From Clostridia bacterium (GTDB lineage: Bacteria > Bacillota > Clostridia > Oscillospirales > CAG-272), in NCBI GenBank assembly GCA_017411785.1, contig JAFQPL010000082.1:1-34505 (forward strand): a DNA stretch of 34,505 nt, given 5' to 3'. Within the stretch, counting starts at the first letter, position 1. Each line of letters starts with the position of its first letter. The notes below the pieces were generated by a model. The model searched no databases. It saw only the letters and a list, made by a program, of their open reading frames with translations, and was not told the origin of the DNA. Below, piece after piece: positions 3,662 through 26,840 of the stretch. The translations under genes and the position numbers were made by a program.

Positions 3662-4399
3662 ATGTTTAGAATACTTTTAATATCAATCATTGTATCGCTG
3701 GTATTGGTTTCATGCGCAAACAATAAACAGGAATTCCAAGACACCGACACGGAAGCTACCAAGGAGGTATCAAGCATATCCTCAAATTATATAGATGAAA
3801 TAACCTTCCTTGGAGAATCAACGACTTATCACTTAAAAAGCCGCGGTGTCCTTTCCGATGGAACTAACACAACTCAAGTCTGGGCACCGAAAAGCGGAAC
3901 TCTTATGCTTGACCCCTCAATATCTGACTGTAGAATAATTTATCCCGAAAACCGCGAGGAAATATCTCTTGAAGAAGCAATAAAGAGAAAAAAGCCTAAA
4001 TATATGATGCTTACCTTTGGACTTAACGGTGCGACCACATTTATAGCGCGCGGAGAAAATTACTTTAAATCATGCTATCAAAAACTTATAGATCTCATAA
4101 AAACAAACTCTCAAAGCACCAAAATAATAATAAATTCCTGCTTCCCTATCGCCAAAAGCATGGATATGTCTCGCTATACCGTAAGCGCTGCCGAGCTTAA
4201 TTCATATATTAAAACACTGAATGAATGGGCTTTTCAGCTCGCTAACGAAAATAAAATATATTATATAGAAAGCGCAAAAGCGCTAAAGGATGAAGACGGA
4301 TATCTGAAAAGCTCCTTCCAAGCGCCTGACGGATATCATCTTAACACAGATGCCTACAAATGCTTTTTAGAATATTTAACAAACAATCCTATTGACTGA
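3662..4399 (+). CDS. SGNH/GDSL-family hydrolase or acyltransferase, lipoprotein
   Basis: Lipobox LVSC (Cys18); block I FLGES, block III FGLNG, block V DGYH. Confidence 0.8.
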   Translation: MFRILLISIIVSLVLVSCANNKQEFQDTDTEATKEVSSISSNYIDEITFLGESTTYHLKSRGVLSDGTNTTQVWAPKSGTLMLDPSISDCRIIYPENREEISLEEAIKRKKPKYMMLTFGLNGATTFIARGENYFKSCYQKLIDLIKTNSQSTKIIINSCFPIAKSMDMSRYTVSAAELNSYIKTLNEWAFQLANENKIYYIESAKALKDEDGYLKSSFQAPDGYHLNTDAYKCFLEYLTNNPID

Positions 4400-4413
4400 T
4401 ACGGAGGTCTATT

Positions 4414-4914
4414 ATGAAAAAAAACAAAAAATTTATCATTGCGCTATTGTCTCTTCCCTGCGCTTTCATTTTCACATTCTGTTCTGCCAAAGCTTTTTCC
4501 AATTCTCTTGCTTGCAATGAATTGTCAAGCACCTTACAAAAGGAAATTTCCGTGCCATACGGTGAATTCAGTGAATATTCAAGCGCAGATCTAAATCTTT
4601 TCTTTCCCGATTCAGAGCTTTTTGACGATTTTTATGTCATATATTCAAAGGATAACACAGATGTATCCGAATTAGGTATTCTGCACGCTTCAAACGATGA
4701 AAACGCAAAAAAGCTCTTGGAGGATGCACAGCTTTATATAAAAGACAACCAGGAGCAAAAGCGTGAATTTTTAAGGAATTATTCACCGTCCGAGCTTGAA
4801 AAGCTTAATTCTGCCGAGGCACGAAGATTTGGTAACTACGTTATTTTCACAGTAGCGGACCAGGACGAGAAATCAAAAATATTTCAAAAAGCCGAGGAGC
4901 TGCTAAAAAAATAA
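4414..4914 (+). CDS. DUF4358-like exported protein
   Basis: Signal peptide; the pattern DVSELGIL..F.NYSPSE.EKL.SA....GNYVIF resembles DUF4358; SD GGAGG. Confidence 0.7.
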   Translation: MKKNKKFIIALLSLPCAFIFTFCSAKAFSNSLACNELSSTLQKEISVPYGEFSEYSSADLNLFFPDSELFDDFYVIYSKDNTDVSELGILHASNDENAKKLLEDAQLYIKDNQEQKREFLRNYSPSELEKLNSAEARRFGNYVIFTVADQDEKSKIFQKAEELLKK

Positions 4915-4924
4915 AAAATCAAAA

Positions 4925-4960
4925 ATCAAAAAGGACACTCAAAAGAGTGTCCTTTTTGAT
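4925..4960. terminator. bidirectional intrinsic terminator
   Basis: 16-bp perfect inverted repeat ATCAAAAAGGACACTC-aaaa-GAGTGTCCTTTTTGAT between convergent genes. Confidence 0.88.
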
Positions 4961-5451: not shown

Positions 5452-6864
5452 TTATTTTTTCAATTTTATTTTTAGCATTGATATAACAGTTCGTATTATA
5501 TCTCTACCGTTAAAAGCTGCCATGAACAAAACAAAGGCTATCTGATATATCCACCAATACGGTATCTGTAAAAGGATCAATACCGTTTGTGCCATAATTG
5601 CAACAGTATTAACAACGGTTTTTATAGGCGCACGGCTAAACGAAATATATTTTTTTGTATCTATAACTCTTATTAAAAACACTATTCCATAGCATATTGC
5701 AGTTGCAATTGCCGCGCCCATCGCCCCAAGACTTGGTATCAAAGCAAAATTAAGCACTATATTTACTATAGCGCCAACTGCCGCTGTTAGCAAGGAGCGC
5801 GCGCTTCTCTTATGCACAAAATAAACACTTCCCAAAAACTCCGAAAACGCAGAAAATACCATTGCTATCGCAAGAACAGGAACGTACTTCCAAGACTCAA
5901 AATAACTTTCGTGCAGCAAAAGCCTTGTAAATATTTGCGAAAAAGCAATAAGTCCCGCTCCGCCCGCAAATATTATACTCAAATAATTTTTATAAACCGT
6001 TCCGAAAAAGGAAGCTCTCTCCTCCGCATCCCGTTCGCTTACCGAGGATATCTGCCACGCCTTAATAAAAATGCTGCCTGCTATAGTTATAAGCGTTGGA
6101 ATTTTATACGCAGCGGCATAAAGTCCGTTGATCGCCGTTGCATTTTCTCCAAGTGTTGCAAGTATTACAAATCTATCTGATACAGACGTTATTGTCCACA
6201 TAAGAGTGAGCGGAATATAAGGAACACTGAACTTTAAAAGCTCCTTTACCAAAGCGCTGCTTATTCTCTTAGGCTTTATATCTCTGTAAAGCTTACAGAA
6301 AATAATAAGTCCAACAGAAACCAAAAAATCCGCAAGAATTACAGATAAAACGTACCCCGTAACCCCCATATCAAACGCCACAAGAAATAAAATATTAAAT
6401 CCTATTACTAAAACGGTATTTATTATTCCCTGTACCGCAAAGATCTTTGTTCTGTCGCATCCTCTTACATAATTTGCAACGATGAGATGTAAATTGGCGG
6501 TGCAAATATAAGCAAATACAAGCCATATATACCCATCAAAAACGCTGAAGAATCTTAAGAGCTGTATCAGCAATGCAAGTGGGATCATACCAACCGCGAG
6601 AGTAATTATCGCGGTGCTGAACACCTGCTTTCTGTTGTTTGGTTCTGCGTCTATCGTAAATCTGAAAAGTCCGTCACCTATGCCAAGAACTGCTATCGGA
6701 ATTATAAGATTTGCCGTTTGCGTCAAAATATCGGCAACTCCAAATTCTGCGCTTGAAAGATACGCCGTATATAAGGGCATAAGCAGGAAAACGAGCAGCT
6801 TTGAAATAAAGGTGCCCGCTCCCATAATAGCCGTATTGGAAAAAAGTCTTTTCCATTTTCCCAT
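5452..6864 (-). CDS. Wzx/MOP-superfamily oligosaccharide flippase
   Basis: Many TM segments; KLLVFLLMPLYT..LS.AEFG, SDRF, GLYAAAYK and LIP.LG.MGAAIAT patterns. Likely start is ATG 6864, 2 nt after the yebC stop. Confidence 0.85.
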   Translation of the reverse strand: MGKWKRLFSNTAIMGAGTFISKLLVFLLMPLYTAYLSSAEFGVADILTQTANLIIPIAVLGIGDGLFRFTIDAEPNNRKQVFSTAIITLAVGMIPLALLIQLLRFFSVFDGYIWLVFAYICTANLHLIVANYVRGCDRTKIFAVQGIINTVLVIGFNILFLVAFDMGVTGYVLSVILADFLVSVGLIIFCKLYRDIKPKRISSALVKELLKFSVPYIPLTLMWTITSVSDRFVILATLGENATAINGLYAAAYKIPTLITIAGSIFIKAWQISSVSERDAEERASFFGTVYKNYLSIIFAGGAGLIAFSQIFTRLLLHESYFESWKYVPVLAIAMVFSAFSEFLGSVYFVHKRSARSLLTAAVGAIVNIVLNFALIPSLGAMGAAIATAICYGIVFLIRVIDTKKYISFSRAPIKTVVNTVAIMAQTVLILLQIPYWWIYQIAFVLFMAAFNGRDIIRTVISMLKIKLKK

Positions 6865-6866
6865 GA

Positions 6867-7598
6867 TCAATCGGCATTCTCCCAGTTATGATATACGTTC
6901 ATTACGTCATCGTCATCCTCAAGATGCTCGATAAGCAAATTCATAAACTTGATATCCTCTTCCTCCTCAAGCGTTACGTAATTAGAGGGGATCTTATCCT
7001 GCTCCGCGGAAAGAATGGGATATCCTGCCGCTTCAATAGCTTCCTTAACGGCAAAAAGATCGTCAGGCTCGGTATATATCTCAAAAGCCTCGTCCTCAGC
7101 CGCAAAATCCTCTGCGCCCGCCTCAAGAGCCGTCTCCATAAGCTTATCCTCGTCAATATCTCCGTCTTCGTTAGAAACGATTATTACGCCCTTGTCGGCG
7201 AAAAGATAAGATACGCATCCTGTCTGTCCCATATTACCGTGATATTTTGAAAAATAGGAACGCACATTACCTGCCGTACGGTTACGGTTATCGGTCGTTG
7301 TTTCAACAATTACAGCAATACCCGCAGGACCGTAGCCCTCGTAAACTATTTCCTCGTAGTTTTCTCCCGTTGAACCAAGTGCCTTCTTTATCGTTCTTTC
7401 AATGTTATCATTAGGAACATTATTGGATTTTGCCTTAAGTATAAGGTCGCGAAGCTTAGAGTTGTTATTTGGATCTCCGCCGCCCGCTTTTACCGCAATA
7501 GTAATTTCTTTACCTATTTTAGTAAATATTTTTGCTCTTTGAGCATCGGTTTTTTCTTTTTTGTGCTTAATGTTAGCCCATTTGCTGTGTCCTGACAT
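6867..7598 (-). CDS. yebC: YebC/PmpR/TACO1 family protein
   Basis: MSGHSKWANIKHKK, YEGYGP, TDNRNRT, LEDDDDVMNVYHN. Confidence 0.96.
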   Translation of the reverse strand: MSGHSKWANIKHKKEKTDAQRAKIFTKIGKEITIAVKAGGGDPNNNSKLRDLILKAKSNNVPNDNIERTIKKALGSTGENYEEIVYEGYGPAGIAVIVETTTDNRNRTAGNVRSYFSKYHGNMGQTGCVSYLFADKGVIIVSNEDGDIDEDKLMETALEAGAEDFAAEDEAFEIYTEPDDLFAVKEAIEAAGYPILSAEQDKIPSNYVTLEEEEDIKFMNLLIEHLEDDDDVMNVYHNWENAD

Positions 7599-7628
7599 TG
7601 TTTTTACCTCTGAATTTATAAAATAATT

Positions 7629-9365
7629 TTAAATTTTTTCTGTTTTTGCAAGACAAATAAGTCCGAATGCGTTACCAAGCACCGTCTTAGTTGCCTCTGT
7701 AAGCGCAAGACGCGTATTCTTTACATCCTCATTATCTGCTCCAAGTATTGAGCAATTATGATAAAATCTGTTATACGCGCCCGCAACGTCGAGAATATAT
7801 CTCGTAATTACCGACGGCTCGTACACCGCGATTGCCTCACGCACTACCTCCTCAAACCGAGAAAGCGCCTTGAGAAGCGACGTCTCCTCATCTGCGGTCA
7901 CAACGAGTGTCTCCGCTCCCTTGTATTCAGGTGACTTTGCAAGAACCGAGCAGGTTCGCGCATAAGTGTACTGAACGTAAGGTCCTGTATTGCCCTCAAA
8001 GCTGAGAGCGTCCTCCATCATAAAGTTTATATCACGTATTCTGTTATTTGAAAGGTAATAGAATACAATAGCTCCGACACCGACTGCCTCTGCGATCTTA
8101 TCCCCATTTTCAATATCGGGATTTTTTTCTTTCATAATACTCTCAACCTTTGAAATAGACTCGGCAAAGAGATCTCGCAGAAGAATTACGTTACCCGTAC
8201 GGGTTGCAAGCTTTGCTCCGTTTATGCTGACGGTACCGTACGGAACGTGAACAAGCTTATCGTACCAATCATACCCCATAAGCTCAACGACCTTGAACCA
8301 CTGAGCAAAGTGTAAGGACTGTCCCGCGCTTGTAACATATATCATCTTGTCAAAATCATACTCTTGCTTACGGTAAACCGCCGCCGCAATATCACGTGTA
8401 GGATAAAGCGTAGAGCCGTCCCGCTTAAGTATAAGGCAGGGAGTCATTCCATATGCCTCAAGGTCTACGATAGAAGCTCCGTCATCGATCTTAAGAAGTC
8501 CCATGTCGCGAAGCTTTTGAACCTGAGCAGGCATCTTATCGGTATAAAAGCTCTCACCCTTATAGCTATCGAATTCGATACCCAACTGCTTATATGTTTT
8601 TTGATACTCGGCAAGACTTATATCAACAAACCAACGCCAAAGAGAGATGTTTTGCTCATCACCCTCCTCAAGCTTACGGAATTCAGCTCTCGATTCGTCG
8701 GCAAGGGTTGGATCTGCGGGAATTCCAAGCTCCTCATTACCCGAAATAGCATTATTTATTTTTACGTAAAGAGCAACTAACGCATCGACTCCTCCGTTTT
8801 CTATCTCCTCTCGGTTGCCCCATTTCTTATAAGCTACGATAAGCTTACCAAACTGAGTTCCCCAGTCACCGAGATAGTTTATTCCCACGCATTTATATCC
8901 CGCAAATTCGTGAAGCTTTTTTAAGGAATGACCTATAACCGTTGTTCCAAGATGTCCTATATGAAACGGCTTCGCAACGTTTGGCGAAGAATAATCAAGA
9001 ACAACCGTTTTCCCTTCTCCGATATCGGGCGCACCGTATTTATCGCCTTTTTCTCTTACCTTGGCAACGACCTTTTTTGCAAGATATTCGCCGTCAAAAT
9101 AAATATTAAAATATCCGTTTACAGCCTCCGCTCTTTTTACAGAACAAGCAGAAAAGCTCTCCGCTATCGCCTCCGCAATTTTAGGCGGCGCCATTCTGAG
9201 CGTTCTGCTGAGCTTGAAGCACGGTAACGCAAGATCTCCCATCTTTTCATCAGGCGGATACTCAAGCATATCAAGTATATCTTGCTCACCAAGCTCGGCT
9301 TGCGCGTTTATATTTTTAATAATTTCCGCTATATTTTGCGCTATTTCCTTCTTGATCTCTAACAT
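7629..9365 (-). CDS. argS: arginine--tRNA ligase
   Basis: SSPNVAKPFHIGH, NYLGDWGTQFG, DGSTLY.TRD, FEGNTGPYVQY. Confidence 0.97.
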   Translation of the reverse strand: MLEIKKEIAQNIAEIIKNINAQAELGEQDILDMLEYPPDEKMGDLALPCFKLSRTLRMAPPKIAEAIAESFSACSVKRAEAVNGYFNIYFDGEYLAKKVVAKVREKGDKYGAPDIGEGKTVVLDYSSPNVAKPFHIGHLGTTVIGHSLKKLHEFAGYKCVGINYLGDWGTQFGKLIVAYKKWGNREEIENGGVDALVALYVKINNAISGNEELGIPADPTLADESRAEFRKLEEGDEQNISLWRWFVDISLAEYQKTYKQLGIEFDSYKGESFYTDKMPAQVQKLRDMGLLKIDDGASIVDLEAYGMTPCLILKRDGSTLYPTRDIAAAVYRKQEYDFDKMIYVTSAGQSLHFAQWFKVVELMGYDWYDKLVHVPYGTVSINGAKLATRTGNVILLRDLFAESISKVESIMKEKNPDIENGDKIAEAVGVGAIVFYYLSNNRIRDINFMMEDALSFEGNTGPYVQYTYARTCSVLAKSPEYKGAETLVVTADEETSLLKALSRFEEVVREAIAVYEPSVITRYILDVAGAYNRFYHNCSILGADNEDVKNTRLALTEATKTVLGNAFGLICLAKTEKI

Positions 9366-17633: not shown

Positions 17634-17681
17634 GAAAAAATGAATATATTTATTATAATTATTCATTATATTATATGCATC

Positions 17682-17715
17682 AAAAAAACAGTCCCAAGCA
17701 GATGCTCAGGACTGT
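17682..17715 (-). terminator. intrinsic terminator of rpsB-tsf
   Basis: Minus strand ACAGTCCTGAGCA-tc-TGCTTGGGACTGT, with two G-U pairs that form only on this strand, followed by a T run. Confidence 0.82.
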
Positions 17716-17738
17716 CCTGTTTTATAAATCAAACGATA

Positions 17739-18671
17739 TCAGTTTCCGCCTGCGAGCTTTGCTATCTCAGCTGCGAAATCCTCTTCCTTCTTTTCGATTC
17801 CCTCACCCTTTTCAAAGCGGTAGAAGCCGGTTATCTTGATGCTTCCGCCAAGCTCCTTAGCGGTTTTCTCAACATACTTGCCAACCTTGAGGTCATCATC
17901 CTTGAAGTACTCCATATCAAGCAAGCAATTGTTCTCATAGAACTTTCCAAGCTTACCTACTACCATCTTCTCAAGAATGTTTTCAGGCTTACCTGCGTTC
18001 TTGGGATCGTTTGCCATCTGAGCAAGAATAATTGCCTTCTCATCCTCGATAACCTTTGCGGGAACAGAGTCTCTGTCAAGATAAGGGGTTGTAAATGCGC
18101 CGATCTGGAGCGCTATATTCTTTGCGAATTCTGCAAACGCATCGGTTGCAACGATAGCATCGTCGGCATCAAAGGTTACTACTACACCGATAGAACCTGC
18201 ACCGTGAATGTAAGTGCTGGTGTATCCTGTAGCAACTGCGAAACGGCGAATGCTTATCTTTTCACCGATAACAAATATCATTTCCTTAAGCTTTGCTTCA
18301 ACAGTAACATCGCCCTCAATATAATTTGAAGCAAGAAGCTCCTCTACATTTGCAGGCTTATTTGCAATTATAGTCTTAAGAATATTCTTTACGAACTCCT
18401 GGAAAGAAGCGTTCTTTGCAACAAAGTCGGTCTCGGAGTTTACCTCAACCATAGCTGTAATGTCGCCGTCCTTGAGAACGTCAACTATACCGTCTGCCGC
18501 TATTCTGGTAGCAGCCTTTGCATCAGCCTTAAGCTCGCCTCTCTTACGGAGGATCTTTATTGCCTCCTCAACGTCACCGTTAGCCTCAACGAGTGCCTTC
18601 TTGCACTCCATCATACCAATACCCGTCTTTGCGCGAAGCGCCTGTACGTCCTTTGCGGTAATGTTTGCCAT
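17739..18671 (-). CDS. tsf: elongation factor Ts
   Basis: LR.KTG.GMMECKKAL, EVNSETDFVAKN, RFEKGEGIEK. Confidence 0.98.
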   Translation of the reverse strand: MANITAKDVQALRAKTGIGMMECKKALVEANGDVEEAIKILRKRGELKADAKAATRIAADGIVDVLKDGDITAMVEVNSETDFVAKNASFQEFVKNILKTIIANKPANVEELLASNYIEGDVTVEAKLKEMIFVIGEKISIRRFAVATGYTSTYIHGAGSIGVVVTFDADDAIVATDAFAEFAKNIALQIGAFTTPYLDRDSVPAKVIEDEKAIILAQMANDPKNAGKPENILEKMVVGKLGKFYENNCLLDMEYFKDDDLKVGKYVEKTAKELGGSIKITGFYRFEKGEGIEKKEEDFAAEIAKLAGGN

Positions 18672-18704
18672 AATCTATAATCCTTTCTCGTATTTTTGAA
18701 AAAA

Positions 18705-19460
18705 TTACTCTGCGGCCGCAGTCTCTGCCTCTGCCTCAGCCTCAGCCTCTGCGGCTTCCTCTACGGGAGCATTCTGCTCGCCCTGCTTACCCTCTATAAC
18801 CGCATCAGCAAGCGCAGCAGAAATAAGCTTTATTGCGCGGATAGCGTCATCGTTACCGGGGATAACGTAATCAGCATCGTCAGGGTCACAGTTAGTATCA
18901 ACTATAGCAACAACCGGAATTCCAAGTCTCTTTGCCTCAAGAACTGCGTTTCTCTCCTTCTTGGGGTCAACTATAAAAATAGCTGCGGGAAGAGTGTCCA
19001 TGGTCTTGATACCGCCATAGCTCTTTGTGAGGTCGAACATCTCCTTCTGCTTTGCAGCAACCTCCTTCTTGGGAAGAAGATCAAAGGTTCCATCCTCCTG
19101 CATTCTCTCAAGGTCGTTAAGACGTCTGATGGACTTCTTTATGGTCTTAAAGTTAGTCATCATTCCGCCGGGCCAACGAACGTTTACGTAGTACATTCCG
19201 CAACGGGTAGCCTCCTCTGCGATAGCATCCGCAGCCTGCTTCTTCGTACCAACGAAAAGTACGTTTCCGCCCTCTGCCGCGATGTCACGGATGAAATTGT
19301 AAGCTTCATCAAACTTTTTAACGGTCTTCTGCAAATCGATAATGTAGATACCGTTTCTTTCTGTGAAGATGTACTCCTGCATTTTAGGATTCCATCTTCT
19401 CGTGTGGTGTCCGAAATGAACACCTGCTTCAAGCAACTGCTTAATTGAGATTACAGACAT
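18705..19460 (-). CDS. rpsB: 30S ribosomal protein S2
   Basis: [23 protein letters not shown]. Start is ATG 19460 with SD AAGGAGG; the ORF-track start is over-extended. Confidence 0.98.
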
Positions 19461-19602: not shown

Positions 19603-19631
19603 ATTATAGCATAACTTTTCTGCTTTTACAA
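19603..19631 (-). promoter_or_regulatory. sigmaA promoter of rpsB-tsf
   Basis: Minus strand TTGTAA, 17 bp, TG-c-TATAAT. Confidence 0.75.
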
Positions 19632-19658: not shown

Positions 19659-22448
19659 TTACATTTTGCGCTTTTGATTCTTATTTCGCGCTCGATGCAT
19701 TTTATCCGAGTTTATTTTACTTTTTGAGGCATCGTCGTTACCCGTTAAAAGCATTACCGCATAAAGCACTATTACCGCTATTGCGGGAACTACGGTAAGC
19801 AAGAAATAAAATGTGCTTCGCGTAACGAAATTACCGCTTAATCCTATCAGATCTCCTATAGGCGTAATCAAAAACGAAAGCGAAATCAAAAGCACAAACG
19901 CCAAAATCTCCGCAAGAAACAGCTTTCTTGAAAAAAGCATTTTCAAGGCAGTTCTGCTTGTTATATCAACAGTATAGATCATAGCTACGATAACAAGCTG
20001 AAGCAGCATCAAGGCAAGAAACGTAAATTCCTCCTTATATTGATGTCCGTCAAAAAGATTAAAGGAATTAAATATCGCAGGTAATATCAAGACCAATACT
20101 CCGCCTGTAACAGCGCAAATAAGCGGATTTTTATATTTTTTGATCATATCTCTGAAGCGTTGCTCGGAATATAGCTTCTTTACTGTTTTCACTGTAGGAC
20201 CTGCTCTTCTCGAGTTTGTCATAAACAGGAACAGCGCAAAAACATCAAAGCATAAGCCCAGCAAAGCAACATGGCGTGCATCAGTCACAGAAACGCCAAA
20301 TAACATCGGCAGGATTATAGCTATCAATCTTGTGATCTGCACGCAAAACAGATAGATCAAAAATCTATTAAGGTTTCTGTACGCCATTCGGCAATATTCC
20401 ATGACCCGCATAAGAGGTTCAATTCCGCCCTTACCGTTTTTGGGACGCATAAGCAGCGCATCTGCGTTTATTTTAACGGTTTGCATACAAGTCGCGCTGC
20501 TTTCCTCTCCCGGAATCTCAAGTGCGGTTATCTCCTCATCAAGTCGGCCTCGGCTTTCGGTTTTGATCGGAGCGCAGGAAATAAATACGTCAGAAATCTC
20601 AATAGCCTTTTCCGCATAATCGGAAAAACCTATGATAGTAAGAGTCTTTCCTTCGGATTTTACGAGCCCTGCAAGCTTATAGATATCGTCTGCGCCAAAT
20701 CCATTATACTCCTCATAGCTTCCAAATTCAGACGTAACAGAAAGATCACGACGTTTAAATTCAACAAAAGACGCCACTTTTTCACTTTTAAGTAAATCCG
20801 GAATTTCAGGGACTGCGAGGTCTCTGTCGTAACAATTTGAAAAGGTTATAACACCGATTCCGTTTTTGCGGAATTCGTTTACGGTATGTACTGTTGTATA
20901 GTCCAGACCTTCTCTTAACACAAGCATACCGACGAAGCATCGCGCTCCATCGCTTACCGATGTAAAGATTATCGGCTTTTTGCCGGAATTAACATTAGAA
21001 TAAAAGAGATTTTTCAGTCTTTGAATACCCTCATATGTGAGAAGCTTTTTTTCTCCCGCCAGATAAACATAAGTGCAGTCCTCAATAATACGGCTTGATG
21101 TTGAAACCTGCATTTCTTTGTTTATACCCATTTCAGTATAAACCAAAGTATCGCTTACGCTTCTGTCAACGCGCGGCAGATAGGAATTCACCGTACACCG
21201 TATTTTTAACGCCTCTCGGTCAAAGTTGGCTTTATTGAGTAATTCCTCTATTGCCATATCTATCATACCGTAAGACTTAACACCTATGCTGGGCATCGAG
21301 GAACGCGCTTGAGCATATATGGTGACCATATTAAAAAGCTCTGCCGCGCTTCCGCTCAAGCTCTCAATATCCTTTAGTGCTCCGTCCGCCGTTTCCAACG
21401 CGGCAAAATGCAAAATTCCGTCGGTAGCAATACTTCCGTCCAAAATAAATATATAATCGGTATCCGCAAGCTTGTCCAGAACACTTGCCGAACGCAATAT
21501 ACACGGATTATCCGCAACAGCAGCCTTTCTGACATATCTGTTGAAAAACGCCGCAAAGAGAGTTGAAAAGCTTGTCAACCGAAAGGTTGCCCCAAAGGCA
21601 AGCGCGATCATAATTGTTTGCGACAAGAAAGAATTTCCGCCTACAAGCTCCCCCATAAGCAAGCTGATAATACAAAACGGCAATAAGCAAATAAGCAATA
21701 TCGTGCTGAATTTGGAGCAGCTTTTTCTAAGGAGCTTCAGGGTTTGCGGAATATCATCCTCAAGGCTTTGAGAAAGTCCTCCCATCACAGATCCAAGATA
21801 GGTATAATCACCTGTAGCGATTACCACCGCACGTCCGCTTCCCTCATCAACGGTTGAACCCGCGTGAAGCATATTTACCATATTTTCAGCGTATATCTCC
21901 TCGGGGCTCACCGCACCGTTTGCATATTTTTGAAGCTTTTTCTCGGTCTTTTTGTCGATCTGCATCGTTACCTTCAGATCATCCGAGTAAACAAGTCTCG
22001 CGTCTACACCTATAACATCACCGCGCTCAACTATAATGACGTCACCTACTACGACGTCCTTATAATCAAGAACGTAAAGCTTTCCGCCCCTTATTACTCT
22101 TGCTGTTGGCAAAAACAGAGCCGAGAGAGATTCAATACTTCTTCTGTTTCTGAAATGAAGCAGAAACGAAGCGCCAAGAGACAGCAGCACAATAACCAAT
22201 ACTACACCGCCCACAGTCCCGTCTCCGAGAAAAATAGCAAAAAAGGAAACAAGAGTAAGCATAAGAAGAAAGAAATCATAAAAAAGCTCAACAATAAGCA
22301 ATCCTATATTCTTTTTTCTGACCTTAAAAAAAGCAGAATCCTTTGAAGCTCGAGCATGCGCAGCCTTTAAAGAAAGTCCCGAGGCTACGTTAGTTCTTAA
22401 CTTTTTTTCTATTTCATCAACAGGTAATGAAAACCATTTTTCGTTCAT
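19659..22448 (-). CDS. P2-type (Ca2+-ATPase-like) P-type ATPase homolog with degenerate catalytic motifs
   Basis: Scaffold segments are recognisable (N-terminal W..L.VDEIEKKL.TN..SGLS; PTARVIRGG..VVGDVI..GD....DARL; NMLHAGSTV..G.G.AVVIATG; about 10 TM segments). TGES, PEGL, DKTGT, KGA, DPPR, TGD and GDGxND are all absent. Confidence 0.85.
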   Translation of the reverse strand: MNEKWFSLPVDEIEKKLRTNVASGLSLKAAHARASKDSAFFKVRKKNIGLLIVELFYDFFLLMLTLVSFFAIFLGDGTVGGVVLVIVLLSLGASFLLHFRNRRSIESLSALFLPTARVIRGGKLYVLDYKDVVVGDVIIVERGDVIGVDARLVYSDDLKVTMQIDKKTEKKLQKYANGAVSPEEIYAENMVNMLHAGSTVDEGSGRAVVIATGDYTYLGSVMGGLSQSLEDDIPQTLKLLRKSCSKFSTILLICLLPFCIISLLMGELVGGNSFLSQTIMIALAFGATFRLTSFSTLFAAFFNRYVRKAAVADNPCILRSASVLDKLADTDYIFILDGSIATDGILHFAALETADGALKDIESLSGSAAELFNMVTIYAQARSSMPSIGVKSYGMIDMAIEELLNKANFDREALKIRCTVNSYLPRVDRSVSDTLVYTEMGINKEMQVSTSSRIIEDCTYVYLAGEKKLLTYEGIQRLKNLFYSNVNSGKKPIIFTSVSDGARCFVGMLVLREGLDYTTVHTVNEFRKNGIGVITFSNCYDRDLAVPEIPDLLKSEKVASFVEFKRRDLSVTSEFGSYEEYNGFGADDIYKLAGLVKSEGKTLTIIGFSDYAEKAIEISDVFISCAPIKTESRGRLDEEITALEIPGEESSATCMQTVKINADALLMRPKNGKGGIEPLMRVMEYCRMAYRNLNRFLIYLFCVQITRLIAIILPMLFGVSVTDARHVALLGLCFDVFALFLFMTNSRRAGPTVKTVKKLYSEQRFRDMIKKYKNPLICAVTGGVLVLILPAIFNSFNLFDGHQYKEEFTFLALMLLQLVIVAMIYTVDITSRTALKMLFSRKLFLAEILAFVLLISLSFLITPIGDLIGLSGNFVTRSTFYFLLTVVPAIAVIVLYAVMLLTGNDDASKSKINSDKMHRARNKNQKRKM

Positions 22449-22449
22449 T

Positions 22450-24756
22450 TTAAATACACTCTACCGTTAATTTATCGTCTTTTTTTGAGTATCCGAGAGA
22501 AACTCCCGAAATACTTCTTCCATAGTCTGCAATTATCCTCTCCGCAAGAGGATCTTCAACGTTCGCGCGTATAAATCTTCTCATATTTCTTGCGCCATAC
22601 TTACGGGAATAAGAATTTCTCGCTATATATTCAAGCGCGGAATTTGAATACTTAAGCTTAATATTCTTTTCCGCAAGAGCGGTCTTAAGCTCATCAAGCA
22701 TTATTTTCGCTATACTGCAGAAATCCTTTTCATCAAGTGATCGGAAGGTAATAATTTCATCAACACGATTTATAAATTCAGGACGCAAAAAGTCCGAAAG
22801 CGCCTTCATGGTAGCACTCTCACTGCGCTCGCTCTCATCTGTTGAGAAGCCTATAGTCGTATTAGATCTGTCAGAGCCCGCGTTAGTTGTCATAACTATA
22901 ACCGTATTCTCAAAATTAACCGTTTTTCCTCTTGCATCTGTTATTCTTCCGTCATCGAGTATTTGCAAAAGTATATTTAACACGTCGGGGTGAGCCTTCT
23001 CAATCTCATCAAAAAGCACCACAGAATAAGGTCTGCGACGTATCTTTTCGGTAAGCTGTCCCGCCTCATCGTAACCGACGTATCCTGGGGGCGCACCTAT
23101 TATTCTTGAAACAGAATGCTTTTCCATAAACTCGGACATATCAAGTCTTATCAAGGTTTCCGGTGAATGAAAAAGATCCGCTGCAAGCGTTTTTACGAGC
23201 TCGGTCTTACCAACACCGGTGGGTCCCGCAAATATAAATGAAACAGGCTTTCTCTTATACGATATACCCGCTCTGCTTCTCTTTATAGCCTTTGCCACGG
23301 CATTTACCGCCTCATCCTGTCCGACTATTCTTTTCTTCAATCTATCGGAAAGCTTATCTATCTGCTCAAATTCATTCTCGGTTATATCGGTAGCGGGAAC
23401 ACCCGTCCAGATCTCTATAACCTCGGCAAGCTCCGAATCGGTAAGCTCAAGCGCCTCACACTCGGGCTCAAGCTCGCGCAACCGCTCGGAAAGCTTGATC
23501 TCTCTGGACTTTATCTGCGCAATCTCCTCATAGCATTTTTGCGCCGCCTTATCATCGGTCGGAGATTCAGCCTCAAGTGATTCCCTTTTATCGCGCAGAG
23601 AAAGCAATTCTTCCCTTATTTCCTGTGTTTCATTAAGAGCAGAGCTTGTAAGCGAAAGATGCGAAGCCGCCTCATCGAGCAGATCTATCGCCTTATCGGG
23701 AAGATATCGGTCGGTTATATACCTTTCCGAAAGCGTAACCGCTCTCATTACAACACTATCCGATATTTTTATAGCATGGAACTCCTCATAATAATGCTTT
23801 ATTCCCGCAAGCATTTTAACGCTATCCTCAATAGATGGCTCTTCTACCGTAACAGGTTGAAAGCGTCGCTCAAGCGCGGTATCCTTCTCTATATATTTAC
23901 GGTATTCGTTAAGCGTAGTAGCTCCAAGTATTCTTATCTCGCCCCTTGAAAGCGCAGGCTTAAGAATATTTGCGGCATTCATGCTTCCCTCGGAATCCCC
24001 TACGCCAACAATATTATGAACCTCATCAATAACCAGAATTACGTTTCCTGCCGCTTTGACCTCGCCTAAAAGTCCCAATATTCTTGATTCGAACTGTCCT
24101 CTGAACTGCGTTCCCGCAACAAGAGCGGTCATATCAACAAGATAAAGCTGCTTTCCTTTTAACTTAAAAGGAACATTACCGTCAGCTATTCTTTGAGCAA
24201 GAGCCTCTGCTATAGCAGTTTTTCCAACACCCGGCTCACCTATAAGGCAGGGATTATTCTTCTGCCGTCTGCAAAGTATTTGTATAACTCTTGAGAGCTC
24301 ACGATCACGTCCCACTATTCTGTCAAGCTTTCCGTCGGCAGCTCTTTTTGTTAGATTTCGGCAATAGGTATCAAGATATTTATACTTTTTTACCTTATCT
24401 GCTCCCTGCTGTTTTTTTGAGGTCTTTGCTCCCTTTGGCTCTCCCGAATTATCCGAAGATACAGGCAAATTGCCCTCCGAGCCAAAAAGCTTAGGCAGAT
24501 CTATAGCGGGTGCTCCGCCCTCCTCCATATCGTCGTTCTCAGAGGGGATCATGCCCTCAAGCTCATTTTCCATCATTTCAAGCTGCTCGGCAGACATTCC
24601 CAGCTGATTCATAACGTCACCGAGCATATTATCAACAGGTACGCCTATTTCCTTAGCGCACTTAATACAAAGTCCTTCGTTTATTTTATTTCCGTTTTCG
24701 ATTTTAGTAACGAAAACCACTGCCACTCTTTTATGGCATCTTGAACACATTACCAT
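22450..24756 (-). CDS. class I Clp/Hsp100 AAA+ ATPase with N-terminal C4 zinc finger (ClpE/ClpC-like)
   Basis: CSRC...CIKC N-terminus without Clp_N repeats; Walker A GEPGVGKT and GPTGVGKT; IDEVH; FDEIEKAH; pore loop GYVG; IGF ClpP-docking-like loop. Confidence 0.93.
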   Translation of the reverse strand: MVMCSRCHKRVAVVFVTKIENGNKINEGLCIKCAKEIGVPVDNMLGDVMNQLGMSAEQLEMMENELEGMIPSENDDMEEGGAPAIDLPKLFGSEGNLPVSSDNSGEPKGAKTSKKQQGADKVKKYKYLDTYCRNLTKRAADGKLDRIVGRDRELSRVIQILCRRQKNNPCLIGEPGVGKTAIAEALAQRIADGNVPFKLKGKQLYLVDMTALVAGTQFRGQFESRILGLLGEVKAAGNVILVIDEVHNIVGVGDSEGSMNAANILKPALSRGEIRILGATTLNEYRKYIEKDTALERRFQPVTVEEPSIEDSVKMLAGIKHYYEEFHAIKISDSVVMRAVTLSERYITDRYLPDKAIDLLDEAASHLSLTSSALNETQEIREELLSLRDKRESLEAESPTDDKAAQKCYEEIAQIKSREIKLSERLRELEPECEALELTDSELAEVIEIWTGVPATDITENEFEQIDKLSDRLKKRIVGQDEAVNAVAKAIKRSRAGISYKRKPVSFIFAGPTGVGKTELVKTLAADLFHSPETLIRLDMSEFMEKHSVSRIIGAPPGYVGYDEAGQLTEKIRRRPYSVVLFDEIEKAHPDVLNILLQILDDGRITDARGKTVNFENTVIVMTTNAGSDRSNTTIGFSTDESERSESATMKALSDFLRPEFINRVDEIITFRSLDEKDFCSIAKIMLDELKTALAEKNIKLKYSNSALEYIARNSYSRKYGARNMRRFIRANVEDPLAERIIADYGRSISGVSLGYSKKDDKLTVECI

Positions 24757-24759
24757 AAT

Positions 24760-25356
24760 TTATTTTTTCGCCTTTCGGGAATTTTTTATTACGTCTTTAA
24801 GCTTTCCGTGCTCTATATTTTCTTTAGAAAGCTTTGAATAAAAGCCTATGTATGCACCAAAAGCAAATATCGCCATTATTGCCGCAGGCATAAACAAGAC
24901 GAGCTGCTGCCAATTATTAAGCGACAATCCGCAGACATACTTGAATATTACTGCCAGGAATATTGTAGCGTAGAACAGACAGACTGCCGTTTTACCATAC
25001 CATTTGCTTACAACCACAACGCTGCGCCTTCTTATAACAAGGAAGCCTATAAGTAGCGTTAAAAGCTCTTTCGCAAAGAAAATGAGCAAAAACCATATAG
25101 GTACTACTTTTTCAATGCAAAGACAAACAAGCACGGTACACTGCATAAGCTTATCAGCAAAAGGATCAAGGACCTTTCCAAGCTCTGTTATCCAGTTAAA
25201 TCTTCGCGCAAGGAATCCATCCACAACATCTGTAGCTCCCGCAGTTAAGAAAACTATAAGCGCCCATATCTTGCTTTCAAGCAAAAAGAAGACCGCTACA
25301 AATACAAAAACCAAAAGAATTCTTATTACCGACAAAATATTAGGTATGTTTTTCAT
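24760..25356 (-). CDS. CDP-alcohol phosphatidyltransferase (PgsA-like)
   Basis: NIPN.LS..R and the signature DVVDGFLARRFNWITELGKVLDPFAD. Confidence 0.92.
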   Translation of the reverse strand: MKNIPNILSVIRILLVFVFVAVFFLLESKIWALIVFLTAGATDVVDGFLARRFNWITELGKVLDPFADKLMQCTVLVCLCIEKVVPIWFLLIFFAKELLTLLIGFLVIRRRSVVVVSKWYGKTAVCLFYATIFLAVIFKYVCGLSLNNWQQLVLFMPAAIMAIFAFGAYIGFYSKLSKENIEHGKLKDVIKNSRKAKK

Positions 25357-25437: not shown

Positions 25438-26840
25438 TCAATCAAAAACAAGATATTCCGCTTTTGCCTCTCCGCAAACTATAGCTGTATCCTCGCTGTA
25501 AACCAGCATAGAGCCCTGATCGGAAGCCAAAAACTCCCTTGTTTTATCATCAGTGTTGATTCTTATAACACCCGTTGCCGTCTGCAAGAAAAGATATTCT
25601 CCGACTATATCGGATCTAAGTATATTCTCACCTATCGAATTGTTATAAATAAGCTTACCGCCCGAATCAAAAGCATAAACCGTTCTCAAGGTTCCCGTTC
25701 CGACAACAGCAACCGCGCCGCTTCTGTTTACATTAAAGGAACCAACGCTTGCCTCATAAAAGGATTCCCTGTCTATCTCCTCAAACTTATCGTTAAAAAT
25801 TCTTATTGACTGATTGGTAATTACCGCAAGATTTCCACTCTCAAGATATGCGCATGCGTAAGGGAACTCACCGTCAATAGAATATTCAAACAATTTTTTT
25901 GCACTGTTAGTGCTTGCGACATCATAAAATGTAACCGTTGTTTCTCCCATGCCGACGCCTACGTCATAAGCTACTGTAGCAAATCTGCCGTCAGAGCTGT
26001 TAAGAGACATATCAAAAACATAATCGCTTTGTGATATATGACCTCTCTGCTTTATATTTTTTCCGTAAAGATATATAACAGTCTTTATGTCTGCCTGTCT
26101 CGTAGCCACGGCAAAGGAACCGTCCTCCGCAAAAACAGCGTCGGTTATAGGATCCTCAAGCGTTCTGTTATACACCTTTGAAAAAGAATTATAAAGTGAA
26201 AACGAGCCGCCCGCAGAGTCATAAACCAAAACATATTTTTCACATGCCACAAGATTTGGCGAATAATAATCGTTATTATTGCGCAGCGTTCTCCGCCCGC
26301 TTGTTGTAAACACAGAAACGCTCGAAGGAGACGCGCTTGCGATCCCTCCTCTGAAAAGCGCAAATTTCTGACGTTTATCCGAGTCATAAGACAATATCTG
26401 ATAATTAGAGGTCTCGCTATCTACGGCACTTGAAAAATCCTTTATTAAATAAAAGAAATTATTGTAGGTTATTTCTTTATAATTAGTCAACAAGGCAAAA
26501 ACCACAAACAAGATCAATGCAGCCCACAAAATTCTCTCTATGACCTTATAAAAGCCGATACAGAAGCAAAATAAACATCTCCTGCGCCCTTAAAGTCTTC
26601 CTTGCTTAAGACCCGTTCCTTTTGAGGCTCGGGGTCAAAAAAGCCGCCAACTCTGTTAAAGAATTTACCTTTTTTCTTTTTAGCCTTATTTTCCGACTCT
26701 TGAGCTTCATTCAAGCTATCAAGATCACTGTAATCATCCTGCATCTTTTCATTATCTTCCGAATAATTTTCGTCAGGCTTCTTTATTCCGCTTTTCACGG
26801 TTTTTAAGAATTTTTTTGCATTAAATCGCGATTTACCCAT
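25438..26840 (-). pseudogene. membrane-anchored beta-propeller protein (DUF5711-like), split by a 1-nt frameshift near 26550-26553 (real lesion or sequencing indel)
   Basis: ORF 26538-26840 has SD AGGAGG; ORF 25438-26529 has no clear SD. Adding one T to the T4 run gives continuous ..YFASVSAF-YKVIERILWAALILFVVF.., a 467-aa protein with a cytoplasmic N-terminus, one TM helix and beta-strand repeats. Confidence 0.7.

Follow-up and report, generated by a model that had tools for sequence, protein, structure and literature searches.

A degenerate P2A-type ATPase homolog next to clpE

We analyzed a 34,505-nucleotide stretch of DNA (hereafter the window; positions 1 to 34,505 of contig JAFQPL010000082.1, GenBank assembly GCA_017411785.1) from a Clostridia bacterium affiliated with CAG-272 within the order Oscillospirales. 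The host genome is a metagenome-assembled genome (MAG) of 1.12 Mb that is 70% complete. The region under study carries, in gene order, truA, a gene coding for a DUF5711 protein, pgsA, a clpE-type gene, a gene coding for a degenerate homolog of P2A-type ATPases (hereafter the pump homolog), rpsB, and tsf. The pump homolog is the subject of this work and is encoded by a single open reading frame (ORF) of 929 codons that starts with ATG (19659..22448 on the reverse strand); its features and those of its neighbors are given in Table 1.

Profile searches, recommended as a check in a preliminary description of the window that was made from its letters and ORFs, identified only fragments of a P-type ATPase signature. 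The E1-E2_ATPase family (PF00122) was detected at residues 114-284 (E value of 4.2e-15; 56.2 bits versus a cut-off of 28.1), Cation_ATPase_N remained below its threshold (17.9 bits versus 20.4), and Hydrolase/HAD (PF00702) and Cation_ATPase_C gave zero matches in the protein even at E <= 1. Likewise, NCBIfam models of Ca2+, Mg2+, H+, and Na+/K+ pumps covered only the first ~290 residues, with scores of 40-67 bits versus cut-offs of 500-1000; the scores for TIGR01494 and TIGR01522 were 20.1 (cut-off of 62.3) and 67.2 (cut-off of 798.3), respectively.

Homologs of the protein are numerous. A word-index search returned 269, and the 120 that were listed were 43-100% identical to the query and nearly all of full length. 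An exhaustive search of cluster representatives returned 174 at E <= 1e-30, the best 150 of which were 21-72% identical. The nearest cluster in the ESM Atlas has 1,543 members and is assigned E1-E2_ATPase without the Hydrolase family. The N-terminus of the protein (MNEKWF) was kept in 17 of 17 aligned homologs. Chance falls far short of explaining an open frame of 929 codons for which full-length homologs number in the hundreds.

Table 1. Coordinates of the pump homolog, its sequence features, and neighboring elements in the window.
Feature	Position	Strand	Basis or remark
Degenerate P2A-type ATPase homolog (pump homolog), coding sequence	19659..22448	-	Frame, profiles, fold
Actuator-domain region, residues 114-284	21597..22109	-	Sole part above a Pfam cut-off (E1-E2_ATPase)
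Residues 161-169 (TMQIDKKTE), replacing the dephosphorylation loop (D/E)xxLTGES	21942..21968	-	Alignments
Residues 286-292 (GATFRLT) of transmembrane helix 4, replacing ion-site IPEGL; without Pro and without Glu	21573..21593	-	Alignments
Residues 331-347 (DYIFILDGSIATDGILH), replacing ICSDKTGTLTxN	21408..21458	-	Alignments
Residues 535-539 (TFSNC), replacing MITGD of the phosphorylation domain	20832..20846	-	Alignments
Residues 607-612 (GFSDYA), replacing Mg2+-binding GDGVND	20613..20630	-	Alignments
Residues 704-707 (QITR) of transmembrane helix 5; Q704 and R707 at the canonical calcium-ligand Asn and Glu	20328..20339	-	hhalign
Codon of D735, retained Asp of transmembrane helix 6, co-occurring with R707	20244..20246	-	Alignments
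ClpE-type AAA+ unfoldase gene, 768 aa	22450..24756	-	Stop codon separated by 1 nt from the pump-homolog ATG
pgsA-like CDP-alcohol phosphatidyltransferase gene	24760..25356	-	Separated by 3 nt from the start of clpE
Promoter-like site (TTGTAA, 17 nt, TATAAT with TG) between the pump homolog and rpsB	19603..19631	-	Sequence
DUF5711 gene	25438-26529	-	Pfam E 6.9e-20

Every catalytic motif is replaced throughout the family

We compared the pump homolog to two canonical pumps encoded in the same genome using MAFFT and, using hhalign, compared a 17-member family alignment to 31 canonical pumps. Both approaches revealed replacement of LTGES by IDKKTE, IPEGL by TF-RL, SDKTGTLT by LD-GSIAT(DG), KGAPD by VSTSS (with loss of the nucleotide-site Lys of KGAPE), DPVR by REGL, ITGD by FSNC, the conserved Lys of motif III by I589, and GDGVND by GFSDYA (with loss of both Asp residues of GDGxND). 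The position of TGES, which reads DKKTE in the pump homolog, is occupied by Tyr, Glu, Thr, and other residues across the family. The preliminary description had reported an uninterrupted ORF of 929 amino acids in which each invariant motif is replaced, transmembrane helix 4 (TM4) lacks PEGL, and only an Asp resembling that of TM6 remains of the ion site; the single frame and every substitution that it listed were recovered by both alignments, and D735 was found to be retained where the TM4 and TM5 ligands are replaced. It had also suggested that Asp337 may be the remnant of the phosphorylated Asp. The codon that it gave (21438-21440) is correct, but the equivalence of the two residues is ambiguous, since hmmsearch against the calcium pump LMCA1 placed Asp337 one residue off and hhalign placed it on the Asp.

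The loss extends to homologs of the protein, which the preliminary description had put forward as a further check. Among the pump homolog and the best 150 of the 174 representatives, a regular-expression scan found no GDGxND and no TGD. DKTGT was absent from the expected site in all 150 of these representatives; the lone match, to DKTGS, was at residue 699 rather than near residue 340. The proteins encoded at this locus in other lineages (871-1160 aa) are likewise devoid of all the motifs, while retaining vestiges such as TGE(I/V), RGxxE, (T/S)ED, and QKR; the site of SDKTGT in these lineages reads CDKEVA, CGKNLA, VDSGKY, VHKEGA, or VPKECA. The loss of motifs is old and common to a clade that spans at least three families in the GTDB, and is not unique to the present copy.

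The conservation of the remodeled site bears on whether the protein may still be an enzyme, with Asp337 (within LDGS) phosphorylated or with some other HAD-like reaction catalyzed. D337, G338, D343, and G344 are invariant and H347 is invariant or nearly so in the subfamily nearest to the pump homolog, and constraint in the protein is tightest at residues 312-352, which speaks for this possibility. However, while Asp337 is present in 38 of 38 nearer sequences, Gly is found at this position in 65 of 80 distant members, and His, Pro, Gly, and other residues occupy it in other lineages at the same locus; D343, G344, and H347 are conserved more widely across the family. Since most distant members have Gly, Asp337 is not a conserved catalytic residue. 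Moreover, the Lys of motif III, the Asp residues of GDGxND, the Thr and Asp of TGD, TGES, and the Lys of KGAPE are all gone, and Pfam gives no HAD/Hydrolase match even at the permissive threshold noted above. We therefore regard residual catalysis of this kind as very improbable.

The predicted fold is that of a calcium pump

Comparison of the family profile to that of the 31 canonical pumps yielded an hhalign probability of 100% (E value of 1e-60) over 754 aligned columns. When the family profile was searched against the sequences in the PDB, the first match was LMCA1 of Listeria (E value of 2e-35), covering profile positions 23-538 together with TM5-6. An AlphaFold2 model of the pump homolog that was built on 118 family sequences had a mean predicted local distance difference test score of 91.4 and a predicted template modeling score of 0.89, with low confidence only in the loop at residues 632-643. 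The predicted architecture comprises an N-terminal helix, actuator, phosphorylation, and nucleotide domains, and ten membrane helices. Foldseek searches of the PDB with this model returned solely full-length P2-type pumps (E values of ~1e-34; 13-17% identity), and the best TM-scores (0.70-0.72) were obtained with SERCA1a, Na,K-ATPase, and SPCA1 in states of the E1 type, over the whole chain (~1000 columns). Superposition on LMCA1 or SERCA had been suggested in the preliminary description, and the three-domain and ten-helix fold, predicted with high confidence, does match these solved pumps.

LMCA1 (lmo0841 of Listeria monocytogenes; PDB 6zhf, 6zhh, and 9euq), the top match in both the profile and the Foldseek searches, equals the pump homolog in length, domain order, and its ten-helix membrane domain. 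Yet the two are only 17% identical, and LMCA1 has TGES, PEGL, DKTGT, KGAPE, TGD, and GDGVND whereas the pump homolog has none of them. The highest TM-scores to the model were to SERCA1a in its E1-Mg2+/sarcolipin state (PDB 4h1w and 3w5b) and to SPCA1 in its CaE1-ATP state (8iwr), with 13-15% identity; relative to these pumps, the calcium ligands of the pump homolog are replaced and, as judged from its sequence, the chemistry of phosphorylation is missing. By profile comparison and by the predicted model, the pump homolog is a descendant of P2A calcium pumps of the LMCA1/SERCA type that has kept the overall fold.

Purifying selection acts on every domain

Ratios of nonsynonymous to synonymous substitution rates (dN/dS, omega), estimated by the Nei-Gojobori method, were 0.065-0.096 in six of six pairs of close orthologs of the pump homolog (dS of 0.47-0.99), as compared to 0.023-0.071 for clpE and 0.028-0.108 for the DUF5711 gene. 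When the protein was divided into seven regions, omega was 0.00-0.17 in each and was lowest (0.00-0.06) for residues 312-352. Strong purifying selection thus acts on every domain of the pump homolog. The preliminary description had argued that targeted loss of the motifs speaks against random decay, and had named as its refutation close orthologs that keep DKTGT together with neutral evolution of this copy; we found instead that orthologs share the loss and that omega is similar to that of housekeeping neighbors.

That the gene is a decaying pseudogene or an artefact of assembly is an explanation that we consider refuted. Its divergence is fast (22-37% identity inside a single GTDB family), but the frame is open over 871-1160 codons in all full-length loci that were examined, a single in-frame stop occurs in only 2 of 30 matches from the same family, omega is below 0.1, and 16 DNA sequencing runs that derive from several studies contain the gene. 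The pump homolog is thus a pseudoenzyme in the sense that the fold is kept, the catalytic residues are lost, and purifying selection is evident in many species.

In one MAG among the relatives, the pump homolog occurs on two contigs (L025 and L032). The two copies are ~91% identical to one another and likely reflect a mixture of strains in the bin as opposed to a duplication.

A proposed charge pair at the former ion site

The Asn and Glu of TM5 and the Asp of TM6 are calcium ligands in SERCA, and R707 and D735 of the pump homolog align with Glu771 (the site-I Glu) and Asp800 of that pump. D735 is present in 38 of 38 near members, and Asp or Glu is found at this position in 60 of 80 distant members. 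Across the 118 family sequences, a basic residue at position 707 and an acidic residue at 735 occur together in 93, are both missing in 19, and occur singly in 6. This suggests, from alignment positions, that a buried R707-D735 ion pair may have replaced the bound cation.

A similar arrangement exists in the plasma-membrane P3A H+-ATPase AHA2, where Arg655 (TM5) and the conserved Asp684 (TM6) are described as a proton acceptor/donor arrangement that stands in for a bound metal ion (PMC10654040). AHA2 differs in that it pumps actively and retains the full set of catalytic motifs, whereas R707 and D735 are in a protein that lacks them. The likeness nonetheless raises the alternative that the pump homolog is a passive ion pathway or a sensor, in which the membrane domain would still bind or conduct a cation or proton at the TM6 Asp and the headpiece would report or gate this without ATP. 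The retention of D735 and the precedent of AHA2 are both in line with such a role, but the Pro and Glu of TM4 and the Asn and Glu ligands of TM5 are lost. Furthermore, the 19 of 118 members in which both positions are uncharged indicate that ion binding is no family-wide requirement and is therefore unlikely to be the function of the family as a whole. On balance, we consider an ion pathway or sensor improbable, though less so than residual catalysis.

Gene neighborhood and linkage to ClpE

The protein encoded directly upstream of the pump homolog has two AAA+ modules with an IGF loop in addition to an N-terminal C4 zinc ribbon (C4, C7, C30, and C33), and comprises the Pfam domains AAA, AAA_lid_9, AAA_2, and ClpB_D2-small. 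All 17 ClpE-type sequences that were aligned have the same residues at C4, C7, C30, C33, G636, and F637. By these sequence features, the gene is a member of the ClpE subfamily of Clp/Hsp100 ATPases. A study of the ClpE-ClpP protease from Enterococcus faecalis likewise describes zinc-coordinating Cys at nearly the same positions (C3, C6, C29, and C32), two AAA+ modules, and an xGF loop that docks ClpP (PMC13125188). In that study clpE is described as typically monocistronic and autonomous (PMC13125188), whereas here pgsA lies 3 nt before clpE and the pump homolog 1 nt after it. We consider pgsA to be probably the first gene of a transcription unit shared with clpE and the pump homolog, while the promoter-like site downstream of the pump homolog (Table 1) points to separate transcription of rpsB. 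A search for CtsR operators gave 8 matches with 3 mismatches, none of them near the operon, and at least 8 matches were obtained in 7 of 100 shuffles.

All 36 loci with upstream DNA have clpE directly upstream of the pump homolog (38 loci were considered, two of which, L007 and L032, have no upstream DNA), as do all 13 loci that were added from genera at a greater distance, a count from which L085 was dropped as it is on the same contig as L038. All of these loci were found through the pump-homolog protein. With regard to ClpP, the host MAG, which is 70% complete as stated above, yielded only an 82-bit match to CLP_protease, and a 290-bit ClpP was found in three of five relatives. Prediction of a complex between residues 1-905 of the pump homolog and residues 1-95 of ClpE, each with its own alignment, gave a score of 0.00, which counts neither for nor against binding.

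The N-terminal region of ClpE (residues ~80-92; ~24481-24519) contains a short motif, APAIDLPKLF, after an acidic stretch, and orthologs in the sister clade have a motif of the type TATFPFLxxLFG in its place. The form xPxΦDΦxxΦF, as opposed to the FPF type, was present in nine of nine loci with the pump homolog and in 3 of 26 without it. Co-variation of this motif with the pump homolog was rejected, as only four independent contrasts were available (sign test, p = 1), and the split was dropped as a signal since it is explained by shared ancestry, with carriers on one side of the ClpE tree.

Other features of the neighborhood were recorded. The DUF5711 gene is upstream of pgsA and clpE in all related loci with enough DNA, and its product (23-78% identity) shows a rate of divergence close to that of the pump homolog. 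In some relatives, a protein of ~285 aa is encoded after clpE or the pump homolog (L087, ORF 4065-4925; L089, ORF 6823-7671), with an N-terminal Cys-rich stretch that reads C-x-H-D-C-S-x-C-G-A-D-C-P-S-K. Long antisense ORFs at 17640-18329, 18696-19448, and 21864-22346 on the forward strand overlap tsf, rpsB, and the pump homolog, respectively, and are most likely shadows of the composition of the coding strand.

Relationship to canonical pumps

The host MAG codes for two further P-type ATPases with all canonical motifs, both of P2 type and on other contigs, C86 (L001) and C88 (L002), where their frames extend past the 3' ends of the loci. One of these canonical pumps shares 80, 80, and 67% identity with its orthologs in three relatives, as compared to 69, 30, and 26% for the pump homolog, indicating that the degenerate copy evolves much faster than an active pump, though it is under selection. 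A FastTree phylogeny of 32 degenerate and 31 canonical proteins separated the two sets on one branch (SH-like support of 100). This is consistent with a single origin of the degenerate proteins but does not prove it, given the long branches and the lack of a root in this tree.

Regulation of an active paralog is a common role of pseudoenzymes, and the pump homolog could pair in the membrane with a canonical P2-type pump and tune its activity. The host genome keeps two canonical pumps with all motifs, relatives with the dead copy also carry a canonical pump, and MgtA, a bacterial P-type pump solved as a dimer, was among the fold matches. No linkage between the genes for the pump homolog and the canonical pumps was seen, however, the latter being on other contigs, and such pairing would leave the fixed position after clpE unexplained. 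We view regulation of a pump as unlikely, if somewhat less so than a passive ion pathway or sensor.

Taxonomic distribution

Searches with the pump homolog as query (E <= 1e-50) identified it in 1 of 201 genomes in a sample of the order, namely that of the host. Within the same GTDB family, 30 of 401 genomes had a match, including seven of seven other members of the genus (34-69% identity). This threshold undercounts, since three of five family genomes scored as having no match hold a more diverged member after clpE. Orthologs of clpE were identified in 56 of 61 genomes of the order. Of the 27 order-level loci that extend at least 1200 nt downstream of clpE, 5, from three GTDB families, have a P-type-like ORF after it. 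A class-wide search with a broad profile was uninformative on distribution because it was dominated by canonical pumps (29 loci besides that of the host, all canonical). Carriers are MAGs of uncultured Clostridia, Eubacteriales, and Oscillospiraceae.

In a phylogenetic reconstruction of ClpE, all 29 loci that carry the pump homolog were on one side of a single branch (support of 97), a pattern that fits one gain and a few losses. The pump homolog is inherited vertically. Contigs from the metatranscriptomes of two studies overlie parts of the gene with 0-7 mismatches; the contigs of four RNA libraries left other stretches of it uncovered, which we count neither way.

Discussion

On the basis of its sequence, we infer that the pump homolog would neither undergo the E1-E2 phosphorylation cycle nor pump. 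The reading that we favor, with a probability of roughly 60%, is that it is a catalytically dead but selected P2A paralog with a self-neutralized ion site that serves as a non-catalytic membrane scaffold or partner. The preliminary description had proposed a repurposed, non-catalytic membrane protein, and the clade-wide loss of motifs, the omega values below 0.1, and the predicted pump fold all speak for that proposal. Under the favored reading, the pair of TM5 Arg and TM6 Asp would act as a built-in counter-ion that neutralizes the former calcium site, and the membrane domain would be a fixed scaffold. The selected function would reside for the most part in the headpiece in the cytosol, where constraint is strongest on the remodeled former active site (residues 312-352).

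The gene order may further indicate a partner. Co-production with ClpE from a putative pgsA-clpE-pump-homolog operon could allow the protein to act with ClpE, and possibly ClpP, at the membrane as an anchor, an adaptor, or a dedicated client. We put forward both the shared operon and the joint action only tentatively. The bolder version, in which a calcium pump became, in a whole clade of gut Clostridia, a partner of ClpE-ClpP that is embedded in the membrane, works without ATP, and anchors or directs the unfoldase there, is more doubtful still, although we rank it slightly ahead of regulation of a canonical pump.

Several observations weigh against the favored scenario and its extension to ClpE. 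The loss of function is deduced from sequence only, and the invariance of D337 with Ser at +2 makes residual or altered chemistry conceivable in the near subfamily. The contact between R707 and D735 is predicted by alignment from the homologous positions in SERCA, and the concordance of the two positions (112 of 118 sequences) takes no account of relatedness. Because the whole neighborhood is syntenic, adjacency to clpE is weak evidence of joint function and may reflect inheritance instead. clpE persists without the pump homolog in most of the order, and four loci inside the carrying clade of the ClpE tree are without it. Finally, RNA-library contigs on the gene are no proof of its transcription.

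Defective signatures are rare among P-type ATPases. In a 2014 survey (Pedersen et al.; PMC3896382), DKTGT was intact in 99.77% of 9,634 P-type ATPases, and the 22 exceptions carried single point changes in this motif. The pump homologs described here resemble those exceptions in being recognized as pumps despite a defective signature, but they differ in that every catalytic motif is replaced across a whole conserved clade. Neither a motif-less family of bacterial P-type ATPases nor a clpE-linked pump homolog was described in the literature searched, which included few subscription journals and no supplements. The pump homolog thus looks like a conserved pseudo-P-type ATPase and an apparently undescribed, non-enzymatic descendant of a pump.

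These findings have consequences for annotation and for the definition of the superfamily. Members of the family carry public names such as 'cation-transporting P-type ATPase', 'magnesium-transporting ATPase', and 'hypothetical protein', and the annotation of members as cation- or magnesium-transporting ATPases needs correction. P-type ATPases are defined by phospho-aspartate chemistry, and yet a large family keeps the four-domain body under strong selection without it, which means that the pump scaffold can serve a use of its own. The family also offers structural work a natural P-type body in a fixed state. The fixed position after clpE is a testable lead on how ClpE, reported as autonomous and monocistronic (PMC13125188), might be directed in these bacteria. 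If partnership with ClpE were true, the pump homolog, its translation keeping pace with that of ClpE, would be the first adaptor-like partner of ClpE from the same operon, and no bacterial pseudo-P-type ATPase would have been described before it.

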